Positions 47,035 to 55,497 are shown, counted from the stretch's first letter. The stretch is DNA of 64,000 nt from Thermoanaerobaculia bacterium (GCA_049284515.1 JBAPYB010000030.1:15345-79344); one strand, 5' to 3'. A program made the numbers and translations. Notes: a model not told the origin generated them from the letters alone.

Positions 47035-47826
47035 TTACCTGGATCGCTCTGCAAGCAGAGCTCGCAGCCGTGCAAGCTCGGCCTCTGCCGCGTCCGCGCG
47101 CTGGCGTTCGTGCTCAGCCCTCTGGAATTGCGCCTTGGCCTGTTGGCGTTCAGCGTCGGCCCGCCGGCGCTCCTCCTCGGCTCGCTCCTCGTCCGTGGGT
47201 ATCAGGCTGCCGTCTGGACGGAAAAGCCGGACCCAGTCGCCCTTCCGCCGCTTCACCACTCCGTGCCAGAGGCCGAAGGAGACTCCGAGCTGTTCGCTCC
47301 AGAGCCGGCCGTCCTCATCGGGCTGGATCGGCCGGTAGAAGCGGTCCGCCAGACGCAGACCTTCCACCGTCCCCGCGTCCGGATCGCACAGGAAGTACTC
47401 CGCCGTGCGGAAGACGCGAGCGTAGAGGTCTCGCTTCTCGGTGCGGTCCTTGTTCGCGGTGGAAGGGGAGAGAAGCTCGACGATGACGTCCGGCAGCCGC
47501 CCGCCCTCCTCCCAGGAGATCCAGACCTTACGCTCGCGGTCCGGATCGACGCCGCCCACCCAGAACACGTCCGGTCCGCGGAAGGCCCGCCACGGCAATC
47601 CCTTCGTCATCTCCTCCGAAACCGCCCGCGCCTGCTCCAAGGAGAAATAGACGAACATGTTGCTCCCGACGTAGAAGTCGGTCCTGCCCTGCTCGGCCAT
47701 GGCTTGGCCAATCAGCTCGCTCAGAAGAGGGTGCTCCAAGGTATGCCACTCGGTCTCCAAGGGCTCTCCGTCGTCGTAGACGAGCTCGAAGGGTAGAGAC
47801 GCGAGCGCGGCGGCTGGCTGGCTCAT
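47035..47826 (-). CDS. Uma2-family (DUF820) endonuclease with a C-terminal Arg/Glu-rich coiled-coil tail
   Basis: MSQPAAALASLPFELVYDDGEPLE...PDVIVELLSPSTANKDRTEKRDLYARVFRTAEYFLCDPD is the PD-(D/E)xK Uma2 core. Confidence 0.75.
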   Translation of the reverse strand: MSQPAAALASLPFELVYDDGEPLETEWHTLEHPLLSELIGQAMAEQGRTDFYVGSNMFVYFSLEQARAVSEEMTKGLPWRAFRGPDVFWVGGVDPDRERKVWISWEEGGRLPDVIVELLSPSTANKDRTEKRDLYARVFRTAEYFLCDPDAGTVEGLRLADRFYRPIQPDEDGRLWSEQLGVSFGLWHGVVKRRKGDWVRLFRPDGSLIPTDEERAEEERRRADAERQQAKAQFQRAEHERQRADAAEAELARLRALLAERSR

Positions 47827-48248
47827 GGGGATGCTCCCTTGCGGAGTCGTTGTTTGCGAGGATCTTATTGCGCAGGGCCGGCAAAGGGAAGAGGGAGGCG
47901 AGCCCTGCGATCCTTCTCCTAGCCGACAGGATAGCACGGGAGGATTGTGGGAACGGCGGGAGAATTGGGGGGACGAGACATCCCGAAGTCGGCTCCATGG
48001 CTGAGGACCGAGAAGTAGATCACCCGGCAAAGTTGGATCACCATCTACGCCTTGTTCCCGTCACCCGGAAGACCCGGGCGTAGTGTCAGACCAGGATGGT
48101 CAGGTCAAGACCCTAGCTCCAGGCCGACCGAAGAGATTCCTCGGAGAACGTAGGAATGGCGACAGCGGGTGTGGAGGATGGGAAATCGTGTGCAGTGTGC
48201 GGGAATTGAGTCCAAGGCTGTAGAATCTCTCCAGAGGAGGCAAAAGAC

Positions 48249-48314
48249 ATGCCCACAGCCAAAGTCTTCCACAGCGGCAACAGCCAGGCCGTCCAACTAC
48301 CCAAAGCTGAATGA
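48249..48314 (+). pseudogene. Truncated AbrB/MazE-type antitoxin (vapB-like) N-terminus, 21 codons then stop
   Basis: SD GGAGG followed by MPTAKVFHSGNSQAVQLPKAE*. Low-GC foreign DNA begins immediately after it. Confidence 0.55.
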
Positions 48315-48466
48315 CTCGAAGCGACTATTCCATGACTACCATGCTGAATTACTTCTCCGTTCGAGCCATGAGCATCGCAAATCGATTCCATACCTGGAAG
48401 GCGCAGCGGTCCGGGCCGCCCTTCGCGGAGCCGCGCAATTCGCCGTTCGGTCGCCTCCGAAAGGCA

Positions 48467-51400
48467 ATGTTCGTTATTTTCCTAATCTCTTCTTCGGCAG
48501 CCCTCCAACAGATGGGCTATGCGCAGGAATGGAGGCCAACACTCGTCCAACAGTCGGGCCACAGCGCCTCCGTCAATGCTTTGGCCTTTACGCCAGATTC
48601 CCACTCGCTAATCTCTGCCAGCCACGACTTTAGTGTCAGGCTGTGGGATCTGAGAACTGGCCGCGAAGTTCGTACCCTTGGAAAGCATACTCGCGAGGTC
48701 CTCACTCTCGCTATGTGTCCTGATGGCCGATGCGTCTTGTCCGGCTCGGCCGATAAGACCCTCAAGCTATGGGAAGTACCTAGCGGGCGATTGCTTCACA
48801 CTTTCGTTGGCCATACATCTGCAATTCATAATGCTGTTTTCACGGCCGATGGAAAGCAAATAATCTCAGCCGCAGGAGCAGCGCCTGCTGAAGAAAGCAG
48901 GCAATCGGACTTCACTGCGAGGATTTGGGACGCCAATACTGGGCAATTACTCAGAAAACTTGAAGGGCATCAAAAAATTGTCGCCAGTGCTGCCCTGAGC
49001 CAAGACGGTCGACTAATCGCCACTGGGAGCTTCGACGCCACGATCAAGATTTGGAGTTTCGCAACAGGTAAGCTTATTCGCACCATCGATGGCTTCAGCC
49101 CGGGAGGCGTGAGAGCACAGTTTACGCATGACGGTTGCTGTCTTCTATCCGCGAGCAAAGGGCGCCTCGAATTATTAGACATAGGCACAGGCCAACATCT
49201 GAGAATCCTCGCAGAAGATCCATTGCCTTATCAGCTCGCGCTGAATCCCACGACGCCTCAAGTGGCTTACGCCACAAGAAACATACTGAAGATTCTAGAC
49301 CTCAGGACCAACCGTTTGGTAGCAACCTTTCCAGGGCCGGAAAAATTAATTGTCGAGTCCATTGCGTTCAGCCCTGACGGGAAAGAAGTGGCTTCAGGCT
49401 ACTCTAATGGTACTATCAAATTGTGGAATGTTCAGGACCGAAAGGAAATCTGGGAACTGCGCGGCTACACGTCGGAGGTGTCTAGTGTCGCAGTAAGCAG
49501 CGATGGGCACTGGATAGCATCTGGGAACGAGGACTCGTCAGTCAGAGTATGGGACACGGTTTCTGGTCTGATGAAATGGAAGCTCAAGAGCGAGAATCGT
49601 GACACTCGCGCGCTGATCTTTAGTCCCGACAATCGCTCGCTAGTGACGGCTGGCGGCGATCCTTCAGACAAGGTTGAGGACAGACCCATAGAGGTATGGG
49701 ACATTCGCACAGGCGCCAAGCTATTCTCTTTGGATTTCCATGTCGCCAGAGTGCAGTCCCTTGCCTTTAGCCCCAACGGAAAATGGCTGGCCTCCGCGGC
49801 AGGGACCTCCGCAAAAATCTGGGATATTGTGAGCCGCAAGGAGGTCCAGACTCTCAGCCCGGTAAATCAAATAGTAGGCTTCACCAAAGATAGCCAGCGA
49901 ATTGTAACTGGTGGCACGGACAACAACCTTACGCTTTGGGAGATTTCAACCGGAAGAGCAGTGAGTCGCTTACCTAACGTGGGGTGGGCTCGCTCAATGA
50001 GCCAGAATGGGCATTGGTTAGCCTCGCTGGGTTGGGATAAAGAGTTTAAACTTTTTAACCTCCAGGATGGGCGCACGTTTACTCTAAGCGGCCATCATGA
50101 CTTTGTCTACGACCTCGCCTTTAGTCCCGACAGCAAACTATTGGCTTCATGTAGTTTCGATGGCGGGATCAAACTCTGGGATGTTTATACTCATCGCGAC
50201 CTTCGCACACTCTCAGGACACACATCGTGGGTATCTTCAATCAAGTTTAGCTCTGATGGTCGGTTACTATTCTCAGTTAGTCACGACGGCAGCCTGCGAA
50301 TCTGGGATGTAAGCAAGGGAAAACAACTCGTTTCCGTCATGGCGATGAGAGATACCGAGGACTGGCTCGCAGTCGCCCCCGACGGACTATTCGACGGCAC
50401 AGCCGAAGCGATGCAACGCGTTGCTTGGCGTTTAGGCCAGACTGATACTACGGTATCCCTAGAAAGCTTCTTCAGCGATTTCTTCCGACCCGGCTTAATC
50501 GGCGAGATTATAGCCGGCGAGCAACCGAAAGCGCAGGTTGATATCGCGACTCTCGTTCAAGTACCTGGGTTGCGACATATGCTGAGCCAGAACAGAGCAC
50601 ATCTTGAGATTCGCGCCGGCAAGGCCATTGTCTGCTTCGAGGAGCTCCCTGGTGTCGCGCTCGGCATTCCAGCCGGAGAGAGTGATCTACCCAGCGAGTC
50701 GCGGGGATTTAAAATAGTCCCAGACGACATTAGCTGTAAATACAGGAAGGAACTTGCGGATACGGGCGACGTACAAACCTTGGTGAAGAGCCTTCAGAGC
50801 TGGAAGCCGACTCCATTCGTGACGCAGTGGGACGGAAAGCTGTCGATCACCACGCGATCCACACTGCATATTCTGAGCATCGGAGTCGCGCAGTATCCTC
50901 GCGCATCCGGTCTTGATCCGCTTCCCTATGCGGTAAAGAGTGCTCAAGCCGTAGAGAAATTTTTCGTCCAACAAAAATCACTAGACCGGCGGGCGTATGC
51001 CCGGATTCGGGTGTGGCCGGGCTTGTATGACCAAGAAGCGAGCCGTGATTCCATCCGGAGAACTCTGGAGAAGATGTCTCAGGTAGTGGATGAGGACGAC
51101 GTGGTTGTTTTATATTTTGGAGGACATGGGCTGGTGACCCCTGAGGAGGAGATGTTTTACTTCATACCAAGCGATGGGCGAGTGAAGGAGATCCGAAACA
51201 CCGGACTTAACACAGCTAGCCTTGCTGAGGCATTACGGAGGATGCCTGCTCGGCGCATTGTACTGATTCTTGATACCTGTCAGTCGGGCGCGGCTGTGGA
51301 GGCCTTGAGTAAGATCGGCGAAGCAAAGGCGCGCCTTGAACAGCGACGTATGCACGATTCCTTGGGACCAGCGAACAGCCGGTCCGGAATAGGTGTTCAC

Positions 51401-51634
51401 GTAATCGCAGCAACGCTTCCCCTGGCCTATGCGGTGCAACTCCACTCAGACCAAAGCGCGCTGGTTGCGACACTACTTGGCTCGTTAAGTCAGCGATCTG
51501 GGCCTGTAACTGTGAGCGAGGTAATCCGAATTGTAAGACAACGCCTACCTGAGGCGTCTGAAAAGGAAGTGGGATTTCGCCAGGTACCGCTAGCCGACTC
51601 CGTTGGCTTGGATTTTCCACTAAGTTCAGAGTGA
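48467..51634 (+). CDS. WD40-repeat / caspase-like (peptidase C14) fusion protein with a predicted N-terminal signal or anchor
   Basis: About 14 WD40 repeats (e.g. GHTSAIHNAVFTADG, SGSADKTLKLWEV, LRIWDVSKGK). C-terminal C14 domain with VVVLYFGGHGL (His) and IVLILDTCQSGAAV (Cys). MFVIFLISSSAALQQMGYAQEW leader; the alternative ATG at 48311 adds 52 aa. Local GC about 50%. Confidence 0.8.
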   Translation: MFVIFLISSSAALQQMGYAQEWRPTLVQQSGHSASVNALAFTPDSHSLISASHDFSVRLWDLRTGREVRTLGKHTREVLTLAMCPDGRCVLSGSADKTLKLWEVPSGRLLHTFVGHTSAIHNAVFTADGKQIISAAGAAPAEESRQSDFTARIWDANTGQLLRKLEGHQKIVASAALSQDGRLIATGSFDATIKIWSFATGKLIRTIDGFSPGGVRAQFTHDGCCLLSASKGRLELLDIGTGQHLRILAEDPLPYQLALNPTTPQVAYATRNILKILDLRTNRLVATFPGPEKLIVESIAFSPDGKEVASGYSNGTIKLWNVQDRKEIWELRGYTSEVSSVAVSSDGHWIASGNEDSSVRVWDTVSGLMKWKLKSENRDTRALIFSPDNRSLVTAGGDPSDKVEDRPIEVWDIRTGAKLFSLDFHVARVQSLAFSPNGKWLASAAGTSAKIWDIVSRKEVQTLSPVNQIVGFTKDSQRIVTGGTDNNLTLWEISTGRAVSRLPNVGWARSMSQNGHWLASLGWDKEFKLFNLQDGRTFTLSGHHDFVYDLAFSPDSKLLASCSFDGGIKLWDVYTHRDLRTLSGHTSWVSSIKFSSDGRLLFSVSHDGSLRIWDVSKGKQLVSVMAMRDTEDWLAVAPDGLFDGTAEAMQRVAWRLGQTDTTVSLESFFSDFFRPGLIGEIIAGEQPKAQVDIATLVQVPGLRHMLSQNRAHLEIRAGKAIVCFEELPGVALGIPAGESDLPSESRGFKIVPDDISCKYRKELADTGDVQTLVKSLQSWKPTPFVTQWDGKLSITTRSTLHILSIGVAQYPRASGLDPLPYAVKSAQAVEKFFVQQKSLDRRAYARIRVWPGLYDQEASRDSIRRTLEKMSQVVDEDDVVVLYFGGHGLVTPEEEMFYFIPSDGRVKEIRNTGLNTASLAEALRRMPARRIVLILDTCQSGAAVEALSKIGEAKARLEQRRMHDSLGPANSRSGIGVHVIAATLPLAYAVQLHSDQSALVATLLGSLSQRSGPVTVSEVIRIVRQRLPEASEKEVGFRQVPLADSVGLDFPLSSE

Positions 51635-51699
51635 ACGGCGGCTTCACTTGATCGCTAGCCTATGTTACACTTCAGCCCCTGATGCGACAAGGAGATTGC

Positions 51700-52467
51700 A
51701 TGTCCACTAAAGCCCAAGTTGTCCAGGCCGTTATAGGAATAGTAGTCGTCCTAGTCCTAGTCGTCGCGGCAATCGGTGGCGCCGACCCTCAGACCGGCCT
51801 TGGAACGGCCACAGGGACGAGTAACGTTCAAGTGATCCGAGTCGTTAAGGTCCTACCCAACAGTGATTCAGCCTACTCTATCGAATATAGCTTCTACTTT
51901 CCCGGGCGAGATTTCGTCCATATCAAAAATCTCGGCATCGTCCCCGGGCGAGGGAGGTTTCACTACATAACCCATGAGCGCGAACTCGATTTTCGTGACG
52001 TCGCCAGTGACGACATCCTCCAGCGTGTGCCGTTCTCAGAAACAGTTATCGCGGCCGGAGAGCCTCCTTCAAGCGTAATACCCCGGGAATCGGAGTTCCC
52101 TCCAGAGTTCCGCTCCTTCCCTTGGAGTTCTGCTAGTTCCTTGCAGGAGCGCGCCAATACTGTCCTCAATAAGTATTTTCGCTATTGGCCGCGAGAATTT
52201 GACAAGAAGATTTATTTGACAACAACTTTTACCCCCTTAGAGTTGCGAAAACTTCCGCCCGAAGTTCTTGGACAGGTATCTATATTGCTTTCTTTTCCCT
52301 ATGACACCACGGATCGCGGCTTTTCGTTCCACGTTCAGTCGATTGTGCGTGAAGGCCGAACTCATTCAGATGATTTACGGCAGACTAAGGACGCGACCAT
52401 CATAGCTACCGCAAATCAACTCGTTGACCAACTTGTAAATGAGATAAGGAGTGGCCTAAATCGATGA
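51700..52467 (+). CDS. Membrane-anchored hypothetical protein (N-terminal TM, about 220-aa extracytoplasmic domain)
   Basis: SD AAGGAG 6 nt before the ATG; hydrophobic stretch VIGIVVVLVLVVAAIGG. No family recognised. Same low-GC island. Confidence 0.65.
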   Translation: MSTKAQVVQAVIGIVVVLVLVVAAIGGADPQTGLGTATGTSNVQVIRVVKVLPNSDSAYSIEYSFYFPGRDFVHIKNLGIVPGRGRFHYITHERELDFRDVASDDILQRVPFSETVIAAGEPPSSVIPRESEFPPEFRSFPWSSASSLQERANTVLNKYFRYWPREFDKKIYLTTTFTPLELRKLPPEVLGQVSILLSFPYDTTDRGFSFHVQSIVREGRTHSDDLRQTKDATIIATANQLVDQLVNEIRSGLNR

Positions 52468-52877
52468 CCACAAGGCGCGTGCAGACTGCTTTGCTCTTTG
52501 TTTTCGCCGGCTCCTTCGTTGTGCAAGTAACGGCGTTTTTCGCTGTCAGTCTCAGTATGTGGCCAGAGGATCTCCGAAAGATCCTGACAACCTTGTTCGC
52601 GGTATACTCTATCCCCTTGGCAGTCATAATTGGTGGACTGTTCGCGCAGCCGAAGAAGCAATCTAAAGGGCCTGTCGCCGGGTTTTTGGCCTGGTCTGCG
52701 ATTCTGTTGTCCATAGTATGGAACTCGCTGTTTCTGTGGAGATCGGTCTCTTTCAGCGTCGCTATCCGCGACTCACCTAGCGATGTCATTGACTTTATGA
52801 ACTCGGTTTCAATGGCCGCCTCATTCCTAGTCGCGGGACTCCTAGCCTTCTTTTTTGCTAGAAAGGAGAGCCCGTAA
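52464..52877 (+). CDS. Small integral membrane protein (4 predicted TM)
   Basis: ATG overlaps the upstream stop (ATGA coupling); four hydrophobic helices; low GC. Confidence 0.6.
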   Translation: MTTRRVQTALLFVFAGSFVVQVTAFFAVSLSMWPEDLRKILTTLFAVYSIPLAVIIGGLFAQPKKQSKGPVAGFLAWSAILLSIVWNSLFLWRSVSFSVAIRDSPSDVIDFMNSVSMAASFLVAGLLAFFFARKESP

Positions 52878-53283
52878 TAGGGACTTCCTTCTCTTGTCTT
52901 CTCTGGCGGCGGGCCCGCAGGACGAGTCCCAAAGTCCCGCGTAGACGGAGGCCAAGAGTCTCTGCACACCTCCGGCCCTCGAGATCGTCGATGATCGCAA
53001 GACAGCCCGGGTGGGACAGCGCCCAGGCGATCACCGAAGACTCGCCCGGCCCGAGGTCCCAGCCCAAGACCTCTCCCGGAATACTGGCTGCCTCAACCTG
53101 ACGCAGCCATGGAGTCTCAGCGAGCGCACAAGCCGCAGGATCGGAGGAACCGCGAGCCGCGACCTCGGCGGCGACGGCCCTCGGGATCAACACCTCGGGA
53201 GGTGCGAGTTGGAAAAGATGGAGGAACTGGGTACGGGCGAGATAGATGAGCGGAGAGGCGTTGACGACCGCCGTCTCACTCAT
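52858..53283 (-). CDS. DUF3368 PIN-like toxin of a UPF0175/DUF3368 type II TA pair
   Basis: MSETAVVNASPLIYLARTQFLHLF...; overlaps the antitoxin by 8 nt. Confidence 0.65.
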   Translation of the reverse strand: MSETAVVNASPLIYLARTQFLHLFQLAPPEVLIPRAVAAEVAARGSSDPAACALAETPWLRQVEAASIPGEVLGWDLGPGESSVIAWALSHPGCLAIIDDLEGRRCAETLGLRLRGTLGLVLRARRQRRQEKEVPITGSPF

Positions 53284-53527
53284 CCGCCAGCTCCCTACGT
53301 AGGGACTGGAAATCGACCACGAAAGCATCGACGCCCTCGCGGGCCAGAGCGAGAAGGAAGTCCGTCCGATCCAGATCCGCCAGTTGGGCGGCACGCTCTT
53401 GGGAGATCTTGCCCTGAGAATACCAGTGGATGGCCGCTGCAAGCCGCAGCTCTCGGGCCAACTCGTGTGGCGAGCGTCGCAGGGAGGCGCAGACCTCTGA
53501 AGGTATCGTGAGCTGGATCGTCATCAT
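53276..53527 (-). CDS. UPF0175-family antitoxin
   Basis: 83 aa; ...ISQERAAQLADLDRTDFLLALAREGV... is typical of UPF0175. Confidence 0.65.
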   Translation of the reverse strand: MMTIQLTIPSEVCASLRRSPHELARELRLAAAIHWYSQGKISQERAAQLADLDRTDFLLALAREGVDAFVVDFQSLRRELADE

Positions 53528-53706
53528 CGTGTCCCAAAGGCCGTCTAGGCATCCACCATCCTAGCAGAACGCAGGCTTCAAGGCCACGACGAGAGACCCT
53601 CCTGAGGGAAAAGCCAGGGTTGGTTCGTTGGTTCAAGGATATGCCTCTTTTGATGCTCTCGCGAGATCCTGCCTTACAATCCCTCAGATTCCCAAGGAGA
53701 CCTCCC

Positions 53707-55497
53707 GTGCCCGAGCCCATTCGCCGTGCCGCGCTGTTCGTCATCCTTCTTCTCGCCTTCGCCGCCACGTCCCCGGCAGCCCCAGAGGCCGCAAAAGAAC
53801 CGGACGTGGACCTCCAGTGGGGCGTCCGCATCCCGATGCGCGACGGCGTCGAGCTGGCCGCCACGGTGTACCGGCCGGCCAAGCAGAAGGACCCGTTGCC
53901 GGTCATCTTTACGCTGACGCCCTACATCGGCGACAGCTATCACCCGCGGGCGATGTACTTCGCCCGTCACGGTTACGTCTATGTCCTGGTCGACGTGCGG
54001 GGACGGGGGAGCTCCGGCGGCACGTTCGATCCCTTCGCCCAGGAGAGCCACGACGGCTACGACGCCGTCGAGTGGCTTGCCCGCCAGAGCTGGTCCAACG
54101 GCAAGGTGGCGACGTGGGGCGGCTCGTACGCCGGCTACGATCAGTGGGCGACGGCGAAGGAGCTGCCTCCCCACCTGGCTACCTTCGTTCCCGTCGCCTC
54201 CGTCCATCCGGGGATCGATTACCCGGATCCCAAAAACATCTTCCTTTCCTACGACACGCAATGGCTGACCTTCACCGGCGGCAAGACGGGCAACGCCCTC
54301 CTGTTCGGCGACTCCTCCTACTGGATCCAAAAATACCTCGAGATGTATCGCGGTCACCTTCCCTTCCGCGAGCTCGACCGGATCGTGGGTAACCCGAACC
54401 CGGCGTTTCAGCGGTGGCTCGCTCACCCCTCGTATGACGACTTCTGGAAAGCCATGGTGCCCACGCGGGAGCAGTATGCCAAGCTCAATATCCCGATCCT
54501 CACGATCACCGGTCACTACGACGGCGATCAGGGCGGGGCACTCACCTATTACCGCAATCACATGCGGGAAGCGTCGCCCACGGAGCGTGACCGCCACTAC
54601 CTCATCATCGGCCCGTGGGACCATCCCGGCACCCGGACTCCGCGGCGCGAGGTGGGCGGCCTGACCTTCGGCGAGGCCAGCGTGCTCGACCTCAACGATT
54701 TGCACCGGCAGTGGTACGACTGGACGATGAAGAGCGGCACCAAGCCCGCCTTCCTCAAGAAGCGGGTGGCCTATTACGTGGTGGGGCCCGGAGCCGAGGA
54801 ATGGAAATACGCCGACTTCCTGGAAGAGATCGGCGCTCAGAAGCGCACCCTCTATCTCAGCTCAGACAACAGCCAGGTCCAGGACGCCTTCCACTCCGGC
54901 GGCCTCGCCGACGCCAAGCCCGCCGGGGCCGCGCAACCTGATCGCTGGGTCTATGACCCGTTGGACATTCGGCCAGGCGAAGAATTCGAGCACGACGGTG
55001 GCGAAGCTTATTTGACAGATCAGCGGTCGGTCCTCAACCTTTATGGCAACGGCGCCATCTATCACAGCGTCCCGTTCTCCGAAGCGACCGAGGTCTCGGG
55101 CCAGGTGAAGCTCTCCCTCTGGATCTCTCTCGACGTGCCCGACACCGATTTTCAGGCCACCCTCTACGAGATCCTTCCCGACGGCAAGAGTATTTACCTC
55201 ACCTCGGACTCACTGCGCGCCCGTTATCGCGATTCGCTGGAGAAAGAAACCCTGGTGCCGAAGGGCGAGATCGTGCACTATCAATTCAACGGCTTCACCT
55301 GGTTCTCCCGCAAGGTCTCCAAGGGCAGCCGCCTGCGCCTCGTCGTCGCCTGCCCCAACACCATCGGGCTCGAAAAGAACTACAACTCGGGCGGCGTAGT
55401 GGCCGATGAAACGGCCAAGGATGCACGCACGGCCCACGTCGTCCTCTACCACGACGCGGAGCACCCGAGCGCTCTGGAGATTCCAATCGTGAAGTGA
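53707..55497 (+). CDS. CocE/NonD-family hydrolase (S15 X-Pro dipeptidyl-peptidase-like), secreted; copy 1
   Basis: GTG start with SD AAGGAGA; GGSYAGY nucleophile motif; about 85% identical to copy 2. Confidence 0.8.
   Translation: MPEPIRRAALFVILLLAFAATSPAAPEAAKEPDVDLQWGVRIPMRDGVELAATVYRPAKQKDPLPVIFTLTPYIGDSYHPRAMYFARHGYVYVLVDVRGRGSSGGTFDPFAQESHDGYDAVEWLARQSWSNGKVATWGGSYAGYDQWATAKELPPHLATFVPVASVHPGIDYPDPKNIFLSYDTQWLTFTGGKTGNALLFGDSSYWIQKYLEMYRGHLPFRELDRIVGNPNPAFQRWLAHPSYDDFWKAMVPTREQYAKLNIPILTITGHYDGDQGGALTYYRNHMREASPTERDRHYLIIGPWDHPGTRTPRREVGGLTFGEASVLDLNDLHRQWYDWTMKSGTKPAFLKKRVAYYVVGPGAEEWKYADFLEEIGAQKRTLYLSSDNSQVQDAFHSGGLADAKPAGAAQPDRWVYDPLDIRPGEEFEHDGGEAYLTDQRSVLNLYGNGAIYHSVPFSEATEVSGQVKLSLWISLDVPDTDFQATLYEILPDGKSIYLTSDSLRARYRDSLEKETLVPKGEIVHYQFNGFTWFSRKVSKGSRLRLVVACPNTIGLEKNYNSGGVVADETAKDARTAHVVLYHDAEHPSALEIPIVK

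Follow-up and report, generated by a model that had tools for sequence, protein, structure and literature searches.

Caspase homologues of peptidase family C14 are regarded as site-specific processing proteases, not bulk degraders, and the characterised non-caspase members all cleave after Arg or Lys (PMC5756287). In prokaryotes, WD40 is the commonest partner domain of C14, usually in cytoplasmic proteins of the metacaspase-(NACHT)-WD40 type, and a 2012 survey recorded many caspase homologues with N-terminal helices or extracellular domains (PMC3501461). WD40 metacaspases bearing signal peptides were noted in 2014 on a genomic island of Psychroflexus torquis (PMC3914696). Here we analyse a three-gene cassette, g1–g2–g3, in a 64,000-nucleotide stretch of DNA (hereafter the window; GCA_049284515.1 JBAPYB010000030.1:15345-79344) from a metagenome-assembled genome (MAG) of Thermoanaerobaculia (Acidobacteriota). 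Its first gene encodes a WD40–C14 protein with a predicted export leader, and the other two encode predicted envelope proteins. Our literature search found no description of g2, g3 or the three-gene unit; exported WD40–C14 proteins are already known, and what appears new is the pairing with g2 and g3 as envelope partners. We assign a probability of roughly 0.6 to the interpretation that the cassette is self-contained, was acquired horizontally and assembles a protease complex at the outer surface of the cytoplasmic membrane.

The cassette coincides with a drop in guanine-plus-cytosine (GC) content, from 0.62–0.71 on either side to 0.50–0.57 across approximately 48,000–52,999 (500-nt windows). 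An earlier note on this DNA had described this drop and a three-gene unit within it, and both descriptions hold: the dip is filled by three intact open reading frames (ORFs) on the + strand, namely g1 (48311..51634, read from its first ATG), g2 (51700..52467) and g3 (52464..52877). Conservation of the unit was assessed by profile scans of 101 fetched loci, designated by L numbers; L102, added later, was read from its called genes. A large WD40 protein lay near all seven g2 homologues whose neighbourhoods were inspected, and six of these partners had the same linker and caspase as g1 (phmmer 1e-41 to 1e-63 and 1e-77 to 1e-104); at the seventh, L008, the contig ends inside the linker. Every g2 locus with enough flanking sequence carried g3, overlapping or directly downstream, together with a WD40–caspase gene within 563 bp, and the called genes of L102 showed the same gene order. 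For loci that carry g2, the neighbourhood check proposed in the earlier note, that genes 2 and 3 should accompany homologues of gene 1, came out in its favour.

Gene order was g1–g2–g3 in the window, L003, L004, L007 and L011–L014, among others, and g2–g3–g1 in L002, with convergent genes in L006 and L099; g2 stood directly upstream of g3 in every locus. No fourth gene was common to the loci of the closest relatives. The dN/dS values of g2 and of a gene in which g3 and g1 are fused (see below) were 0.13–0.37, indicating purifying selection on both. The surroundings of the module range from insertion sequence (IS) elements, integrases and TIR, AbiE and HEPN genes to plain transport and metabolic genes, the latter around L002 and L004. 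Judged from these neighbourhoods, the three genes are one real, conserved unit. Tandem arrays of two to three WD40–caspase paralogues were also seen, at L010 (775-8254), L012 (1447-8272), L019 (4979-13817), L047 (2-8311) and L102 (6938-18000). In L006 (8892-11918, − strand), L092 (2-3073) and L102 (6938-10257) a WD40–caspase gene is broken by a stop or frameshift; L006 is labelled a long-read assembly, and the broken copies may be sequencing errors or decaying genes. Directly upstream of the module in L007 (3989-4600) lies a pair encoding 80 and 122 residues that resembles an antitoxin and a PIN-domain toxin, with a DUF6088/AbiEii pair further upstream. Carriage of the module by plasmids or phages was considered and not found: g2 had no match on plasmids, and the caspase region had one weak match only among phages (27% identity over 37% of the query).

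The domain map of g1 is complete from leader to protease. WD40 and β-propeller families matched residues ~77–690 (Pfam, E values down to 1e-102; PF00400, 9e-96), and 14 blades can be counted over residues 77–666 (48539..50308, + strand), a number from which we predict closure into two seven-bladed propellers. A linker domain of 155 residues follows (691–845; 50381..50845, + strand). It had no Pfam match and contains Cys775 and Cys809, both of which are kept in 20 of 20 close-relative linkers and probably form a disulfide. The C-terminal domain (residues 846–1107; 50846..51631, + strand) is a Peptidase C14 domain of the caspase-hemoglobinase type: with the C-terminal part scanned alone, PF00656 scored 57.9 bits over residues ~856–1099, above its cut-off of 21.4 (E 1.6e-15). 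The catalytic residues His939 (51125-51127, in YFGGHGL) and Cys990 (51278-51280, in LDTCQSG), along with Asp988 (51272-51274), were invariant in 21 homologues. An AlphaFold 2 (AF2) model of residues 691–1107 (pLDDT 75.5, the caspase part mostly 70–97) matched GSU0716, MALT1, caspases 3, 7 and 9 and metacaspases with E values of 1e-10 to 1e-7, and Arabidopsis metacaspase-4 was a direct sequence match in which SGHG and DSCHSG align with GGHG and DTCQSG of g1. The Asp-x-Cys spacing of the invariant Asp and the catalytic Cys, taken with the rule established for characterised non-caspase C14 enzymes (PMC5756287), suggests that the protease is probably Arg/Lys-specific. The best NCBIfam model, NF047832 (caspase, EACC1-associated type), scored 78.7 bits, below its cut-off of 140. 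No NACHT or NB-ARC NTPase family appeared among the Pfam matches listed, and no unassigned stretch of NTPase size was present, since leader, WD40 repeats, linker and caspase fill the protein. The approximately 14 repeats, the C14 domain with its intact His/Cys dyad and the lack of an NTPase were all anticipated in the earlier note.

Upstream of the propellers, g1 begins with a predicted leader whose presence is robust to most choices of start codon. In-frame ATG candidates stand at 48311, 48332, 48341, 48368, 48467 and 48512, and the gene call in an independent assembly of the same locus uses 48368, giving 1088 residues; we regard 48368 as the likely start and 48467 as the alternative. The earlier proposal of 48467 is the less favoured: translation from this codon would begin right at the hydrophobic core and strip the charged n-region, which the upstream ATGs retain, so that the real start is probably upstream. 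The hydrophobic leader itself, also proposed earlier, is retained under every start from 48311 to 48467, and only the ATG at 48512, within the c-region, would remove it. Core and c-region (48467..48523, + strand) read MFVIFLISSSAALQQMGYA, then QE, follow a basic n-region ending in GRLRKA and form the Kyte–Doolittle peak. As a sequence pattern only, RLRKA-MFVIFLISSSAAL-QQMGYA↓QE combines a basic n-region, a hydrophobic core and a small-x-small motif; the hydrophobic stretch between RLRKA and QQMGYA↓QE is FVIFLISSSAAL, and blade 1 (P-T-L-V-Q-Q-S-G-H) starts a few residues on. We scored leaders across the family as a 12-residue window with a Kyte–Doolittle value of at least 2.0 within 60 residues before the first WD40 match. 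Among 75 full-length family ORFs from many phyla, 63 had such a segment directly ahead of blade 1, compared with 16 of the 1500 internal windows used as controls; the 12 negatives include visibly truncated or interrupted ORFs. The typical form in the family is MKK-hydrophobic-AxA↓Q-PELVVQTGH. We infer from this pattern that the leader directs g1 to the Sec pathway for export.

The second gene encodes a protein of 255 residues (NCBI call, hypothetical protein; alternative ATG 51682) with a single hydrophobic segment, at its N-terminus, and is predicted to be exported or membrane-anchored. It had no match in Pfam, NCBIfam, PADLOC or PHROGs, in agreement with the earlier description of a membrane-anchored protein with no recognisable domain, and a PDB sequence search returned no relative. 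Against 1.84 billion representative proteins, a g2 profile recovered 276 clusters at E up to 1e-3 (approximately 276 at 50% identity); nearly all of their members are stand-alone proteins of 240–280 residues, and in 106 of 124 full-length ones the N-terminus is hydrophobic and resembles a Sec signal peptide. The AF2 model (pLDDT 77) comprises a β-sandwich (residues 42–111) followed by an α/β, helix-grip-like domain (138–251); fold comparison gave no gasdermin match, and the fold differs from that of gasdermins. Just before the C-terminal helix lies a basic loop (residues 216–226) whose consensus is V-R-E-[R/G/K]-R-x-x-S-D-x-W-R; a basic residue occurs there in 120 of the 124 sequences. The idea of a strictly conserved EGR cleavage site in this loop was weakened, the motif being invariant in the first 15 sequences only. 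A scan of the genome collection with a g2 motif confirmed no relatives; this single-peptide pattern was probably too strict, because L011–L014, found in the same collection with the caspase as seed, carry g2. Speculatively, g2 is the likeliest candidate for a first substrate or regulator of g1.

The third gene, whose ATG overlaps the g2 stop (ATGA), encodes 137 residues with four transmembrane (TM) segments, as had been proposed, and its loops are strongly conserved among homologues; a word-index search returned at least three clusters. Mean net charges of +2.0 at the N-terminus, −1.1 in loop 1, +1.9 in loop 2 and −2.0 in loop 3 place both termini in the cytoplasm by the positive-inside rule, with the MWPED and WRSxSF...DS loops facing outward. 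In L001 (8783-12607) and L008 (3785-6478), the WD40–caspase protein begins with g3, joined to it in frame, and the fusion retains a leader-like segment after TM4 (SKG-APALLAGLTVWQMIPGLPA-QQ). Given the inward termini of g3, this retained segment would form a fifth TM helix and place propellers and protease outside. The two natural fusions point to g3 as the membrane dock of g1. The envelope location suggested in the earlier note is strengthened by these fusions together with the family-wide leaders, the putative g2 signal peptides and the linker Cys pair. Near the L001 fusion we also observed an nSTAND1-WD40 gene, an IS21 transposase pair and two integrase genes.

Proteins with the plan of g1 extend well beyond Acidobacteriota. 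A linker–caspase alignment scan of 185,579 species-representative genomes recovered at least 77 loci (124 confirmed stretches) in at least eight phyla, mostly Bacteroidota. The earlier note had considered the reversed, leader-bearing architecture unusual; these loci and the Psychroflexus precedent instead identify a widespread family, of which the window is one member. A close tier, 38–52% identical to g1, comprises Acidobacteriaceae, Bryobacteraceae, two Pyrinomonadaceae and one Hymenobacter MAG, and carries g2 and g3 in all cases except the Acidobacteriaceae locus L010. Among these loci the two partners mark one branch, Acidobacteriota plus the Hymenobacter (Bacteroidota) MAG. In that MAG, L014 (4706-9455) has the g1–g2–g3 arrangement of the Acidobacteria type with a divergent g2 (E 3e-18), explained either by interphylum transfer or by mis-binning of the contig. 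A remote tier (L015–L086), 21–30% identical to g1, is mostly from Bacteroidota, with further MAGs assigned to Chlorobiota, Desulfobacterota, Planctomycetota, Verrucomicrobiota, Armatimonadota, Myxococcota and Spirochaetota and some Rhodobacterales. It keeps the leader–WD40–linker–caspase plan over ~1080–1140 residues, with a linker that is a bacterial Ig domain (Big_7) and lacks the Cys pair. Both this Ig-type linker and the conserved Cys pair of the close tier fit an extracytoplasmic location. Remote-tier proteins stop 3–5 residues past the caspase domain and therefore have no type IX secretion C-terminal domain. Neither g2, g3 nor any conserved neighbour was found beside them, the best shared neighbour family occurring in 7 of ~70 loci. 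A shorter variant of ~810–830 residues (L023, L025, L030, L046 and L058) has a leader, ~400 residues without a WD40 profile match, and then linker and caspase.

The position of the cassette within the window bears on its origin. At 100-nt resolution the left edge of the GC dip lies near 48,300, where a 21-codon vapB stub (48249..48314, + strand; MPTAKVFHSGNSQAVQLPKAE and a stop) ends with its stop overlapping the ATG at 48311. The stub is too short for Pfam, which gave no match, and is 75–83% identical to the N-termini of annotated VapB antitoxins in 98 plasmid records. Neither vapC nor the remaining vapB sequence follows it, indicating that a toxin–antitoxin (TA) locus was destroyed by the insertion or an associated deletion. 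The right edge (52858..52900) is sharp, GC rising from 0.50 at 52,800 to 0.66 at 52,900, and the 3′ end of a convergent DUF3368 gene overlaps the last 20 nt of g3 (52858-52877). All homologues of g3 have a longer C-terminal tail than the RKESP seen here, and the right junction may therefore fall inside the original tail. Module GC is 0.53 against 0.64–0.67 in the flanks of the window and 0.60 against 0.74 and 0.63 in L002; in L004, L006 and L007 it equals that of the flanks (0.55–0.60). These values suggest donors of moderate GC. The GC contrasts in the window and L002, the truncated vapB and the unrelated contexts elsewhere fit horizontal acquisition of the cassette, as the earlier note had held. 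A defined mobile element was rejected: no notable flanking direct or inverted repeats and no tRNA gene were found at the island, and no integrase or recombinase gene lies inside it. Around the island, Rfam gave no structured RNA at E up to 0.1, and promoter and terminator scans gave nothing above shuffled expectation.

The flanking genes have host GC and lie outside the island. A Uma2 gene (47035-48030, − strand; Uma2 E 5e-21) precedes it and a DUF3368/UPF0175 pair (52858-53527, − strand), with matches to both families, follows it; their proteins match the PADLOC candidates PDC-S03 and PDC-S70 (the latter with E down to 2e-41), respectively. The bracketing by Uma2, truncated vapB and UPF0175/DUF3368 that the earlier note had listed is therefore real, as judged by family and VapB N-terminus matches. 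Its conclusion that such flanks mark defence or cell-death cargo did not carry over, as these genes are not conserved beside the module. In PADLOC-DB 2.0, g2 and g3 had no match and g1 matched only the generic 'caspase' and 'HEAT-ARM_XIII' models, and no model of a known anti-phage system had all of its components here. A defence or cell-death role is possible, without specific support, and with flanking genes that are not conserved and no PADLOC match for g2 or g3, the label 'sensor/effector' is best read as a hypothesis. We also observed, 0.7 kb downstream of the island in DNA of host GC, a gene for a protein of the S15 (X-Pro dipeptidyl-peptidase) family (53620-55497) whose N-terminus, read from the translation, appears hydrophobic.

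Taken together, these observations can be arranged into a working model of a membrane-attached protease. In this model, g1 would be exported by the Sec pathway via its N-terminal leader, a feature shared family-wide, and the exported protein would present two seven-bladed propellers, a linker that probably bears a disulfide and a complete C14 domain with His939 and Cys990. The position of the invariant Asp, two residues ahead of the catalytic Cys, is shared with meta- and paracaspases and predicts cleavage after Arg or Lys. The four-TM protein g3, with both termini in the cytoplasm, would dock g1 at the membrane; in the g3::g1 fusions the former leader would serve as the fifth TM segment, leaving the WD40–caspase part outside. 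The exported, two-domain g2 would act as substrate or regulator, its basic loop before the C-terminal helix being a speculative candidate cleavage site, and the propellers may bind a ligand or substrate that licenses cleavage. The resulting role would be conditional envelope proteolysis as an accessory trait, in defence, stress signalling or protein maturation.

Several observations weigh against this model. L010, a close relative, has two tandem WD40–caspase genes with neither g2 nor g3 within 7 kb, indicating that not all proteases of this branch require the partners. The case for g1 export is built on hydrophobicity, charge and pattern, and the n-region would be long, at 33–52 residues, if translation starts between 48311 and 48368. 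In g2, EGR is replaced by RDRPR in Pyrinomonadaceae and by QEKPS in Hymenobacter, in loci recovered independently of the motif; only the basic character of the loop persists, with Arg at ~73% in the wide family. The fifth TM segment of the fusions is only moderately hydrophobic, and the contacts among g1, g2 and g3 are deduced from genomics alone.

Three other explanations were weighed. The cassette could be an envelope immune or cell-death module, the reading of the earlier note; this would be an extracytoplasmic analogue of protease–gasdermin systems in which the propellers sense phage or envelope damage and the caspase cuts g2 or g3, permeabilising the membrane or stopping growth. The operon logic is gasdermin-like: in gasdermin systems a repeat-fused caspase-like protease adjoins a ~250-residue partner whose cleavage falls in a loop ahead of a short C-terminal peptide (10.1101/2021.06.07.447441), and g2 has its conserved basic loop ahead of the C-terminal helix. 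The patchy distribution and horizontal transfer of the cassette, the tandem paralogue arrays of L012, L019, L047 and L102, the TA, Abi, TIR, HEPN, integrase or IS genes near about half of the loci, and the PDC-S03 and PDC-S70 matches in the window flanks point the same way. However, neither g2 nor g3 matched any PADLOC model, no defence gene is conserved beside the module, L002 and L004 sit amid metabolic and transport genes, and searches of plasmids and phages did not turn up the module; TA genes are moreover common in these genomes, which makes their proximity weak evidence. We consider an immune function unlikely on this balance. We hold a similarly doubtful view of a housekeeping or nutritional extracytoplasmic protease, whose propellers would choose periplasmic or external proteins for processing, turnover or peptide uptake and whose g2 and g3 would do no more than anchor or chaperone it. 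Propeller-gated peptidases are an established design, stand-alone exported WD40–C14 genes without a conserved partner are widespread in Bacteroidota and other phyla, other secreted peptidases sometimes occur among the neighbours, and in the window an S15 peptidase lies 0.7 kb downstream. Set against this, a patchy phyletic pattern, foreign GC and unrelated insertion contexts are atypical of housekeeping genes, remote-tier proteins have no type IX secretion C-terminal domain, and C14 enzymes are site-specific processors, not bulk degraders (PMC5756287).

Very improbable, in our view, is that g1 is a cytoplasmic death or defence protein of the STAND/orthocaspase caspase–WD40 type, its hydrophobic N-terminal segment being no export signal, even with WD40 as the commonest C14 partner, usually in cytoplasmic proteins (PMC3501461), and caspase_w_EACC1 as the nearest NCBIfam model. 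That model falls short of its cut-off (78.7 against 140), the protein leaves no space for an NTPase, conserved leaders recur from phylum to phylum, each partner is a membrane or exported protein, the topology of the g3 fusions points outside, and the conserved Cys pair of the linker, like the Ig-domain linker of the remote tier, speaks against the cytoplasm. A bolder version of the membrane-attached protease, which we regard as a long shot, is that the cassette represents, for the first time, a caspase-based pathway whose sensing and execution both lie wholly outside the bacterial cytoplasm: the propellers would detect an invader or envelope damage, the C14 domain would cleave g2, and the product would act on the membrane with g3. 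If true, it would be an envelope counterpart of caspase–gasdermin logic built from two never-described protein families.

Bacterial caspase homologues are almost always discussed as cytoplasmic cell-death or immune proteases, and here a large multi-phylum family appears to be exported. One branch of it has gained two dedicated envelope partners of undescribed families, and a natural fusion indicates which of them tethers the protease. The cassette thereby offers a compact, testable system for periplasmic caspase-type proteolysis, WD40 recognition and envelope proteolysis as defence or signalling. Should it be only a processing protease, the gain would be a useful annotation of two orphan families and no new principle.

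With orthocaspases and metacaspase-like C14 proteins such as Microcystis MaOC (PMC5756287, PMC3501461), g1 shares the C14 fold, the His–Cys dyad, the Asp-x-Cys of Arg/Lys-specific members and WD40, their commonest accessory domain. In those proteins, accessory domains usually follow the protease (p20) and the location is cytoplasmic, whereas the propellers of g1 are N-terminal, a Sec-type leader precedes them and two envelope partners accompany the gene; g1 thus departs from the usual orthocaspase architecture. Caspase-NACHT/NB-ARC-WD40 STAND proteins (Apaf-1-like) likewise combine C14 with a WD40 sensor platform, but g1 has no NTPase module, the opposite domain order and predicted export. The top structural match of the g1 caspase, GSU0716 of Geobacter sulfurreducens (PDB 3bij; Foldseek E 2e-10, ~14% identical), is a single-domain structural-genomics protein of ~265 residues for which no function has been described. 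In tricorn, prolyl oligopeptidase and DPP-IV, some of them periplasmic, a propeller beside the peptidase selects substrates; these are serine peptidases with non-WD40 propellers, and no homology to g1 is implied.

The overall plan of g1, with ~14 blades between a leader and a linker and the C14 domain at the C-terminus, recurs in the proteins of Psychroflexus torquis genomic island 15 (PMC3914696) and in the remote tier, which are often tandem and on islands. They differ from g1 in their 21–30% identity, in a Big_7 linker without the Cys pair and in having neither g2, g3 nor a conserved neighbour. In bacterial gasdermin operons (10.1101/2021.06.07.447441), often found in mobile or defence contexts, a repeat-fused caspase-like protease stands beside a ~250-residue partner, as here, and that partner and g2 both have a loop and a short C-terminal element. 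A caspase-like protease is indeed adjacent to g2 in all evaluable loci, but g2 lacks the pore-forming gasdermin fold, having a putative signal peptide and another fold, its cleavage is hypothetical, the predicted location is periplasmic and g3 has no counterpart. The likeness of g1–g2 to gasdermin operons is one of operon logic only.

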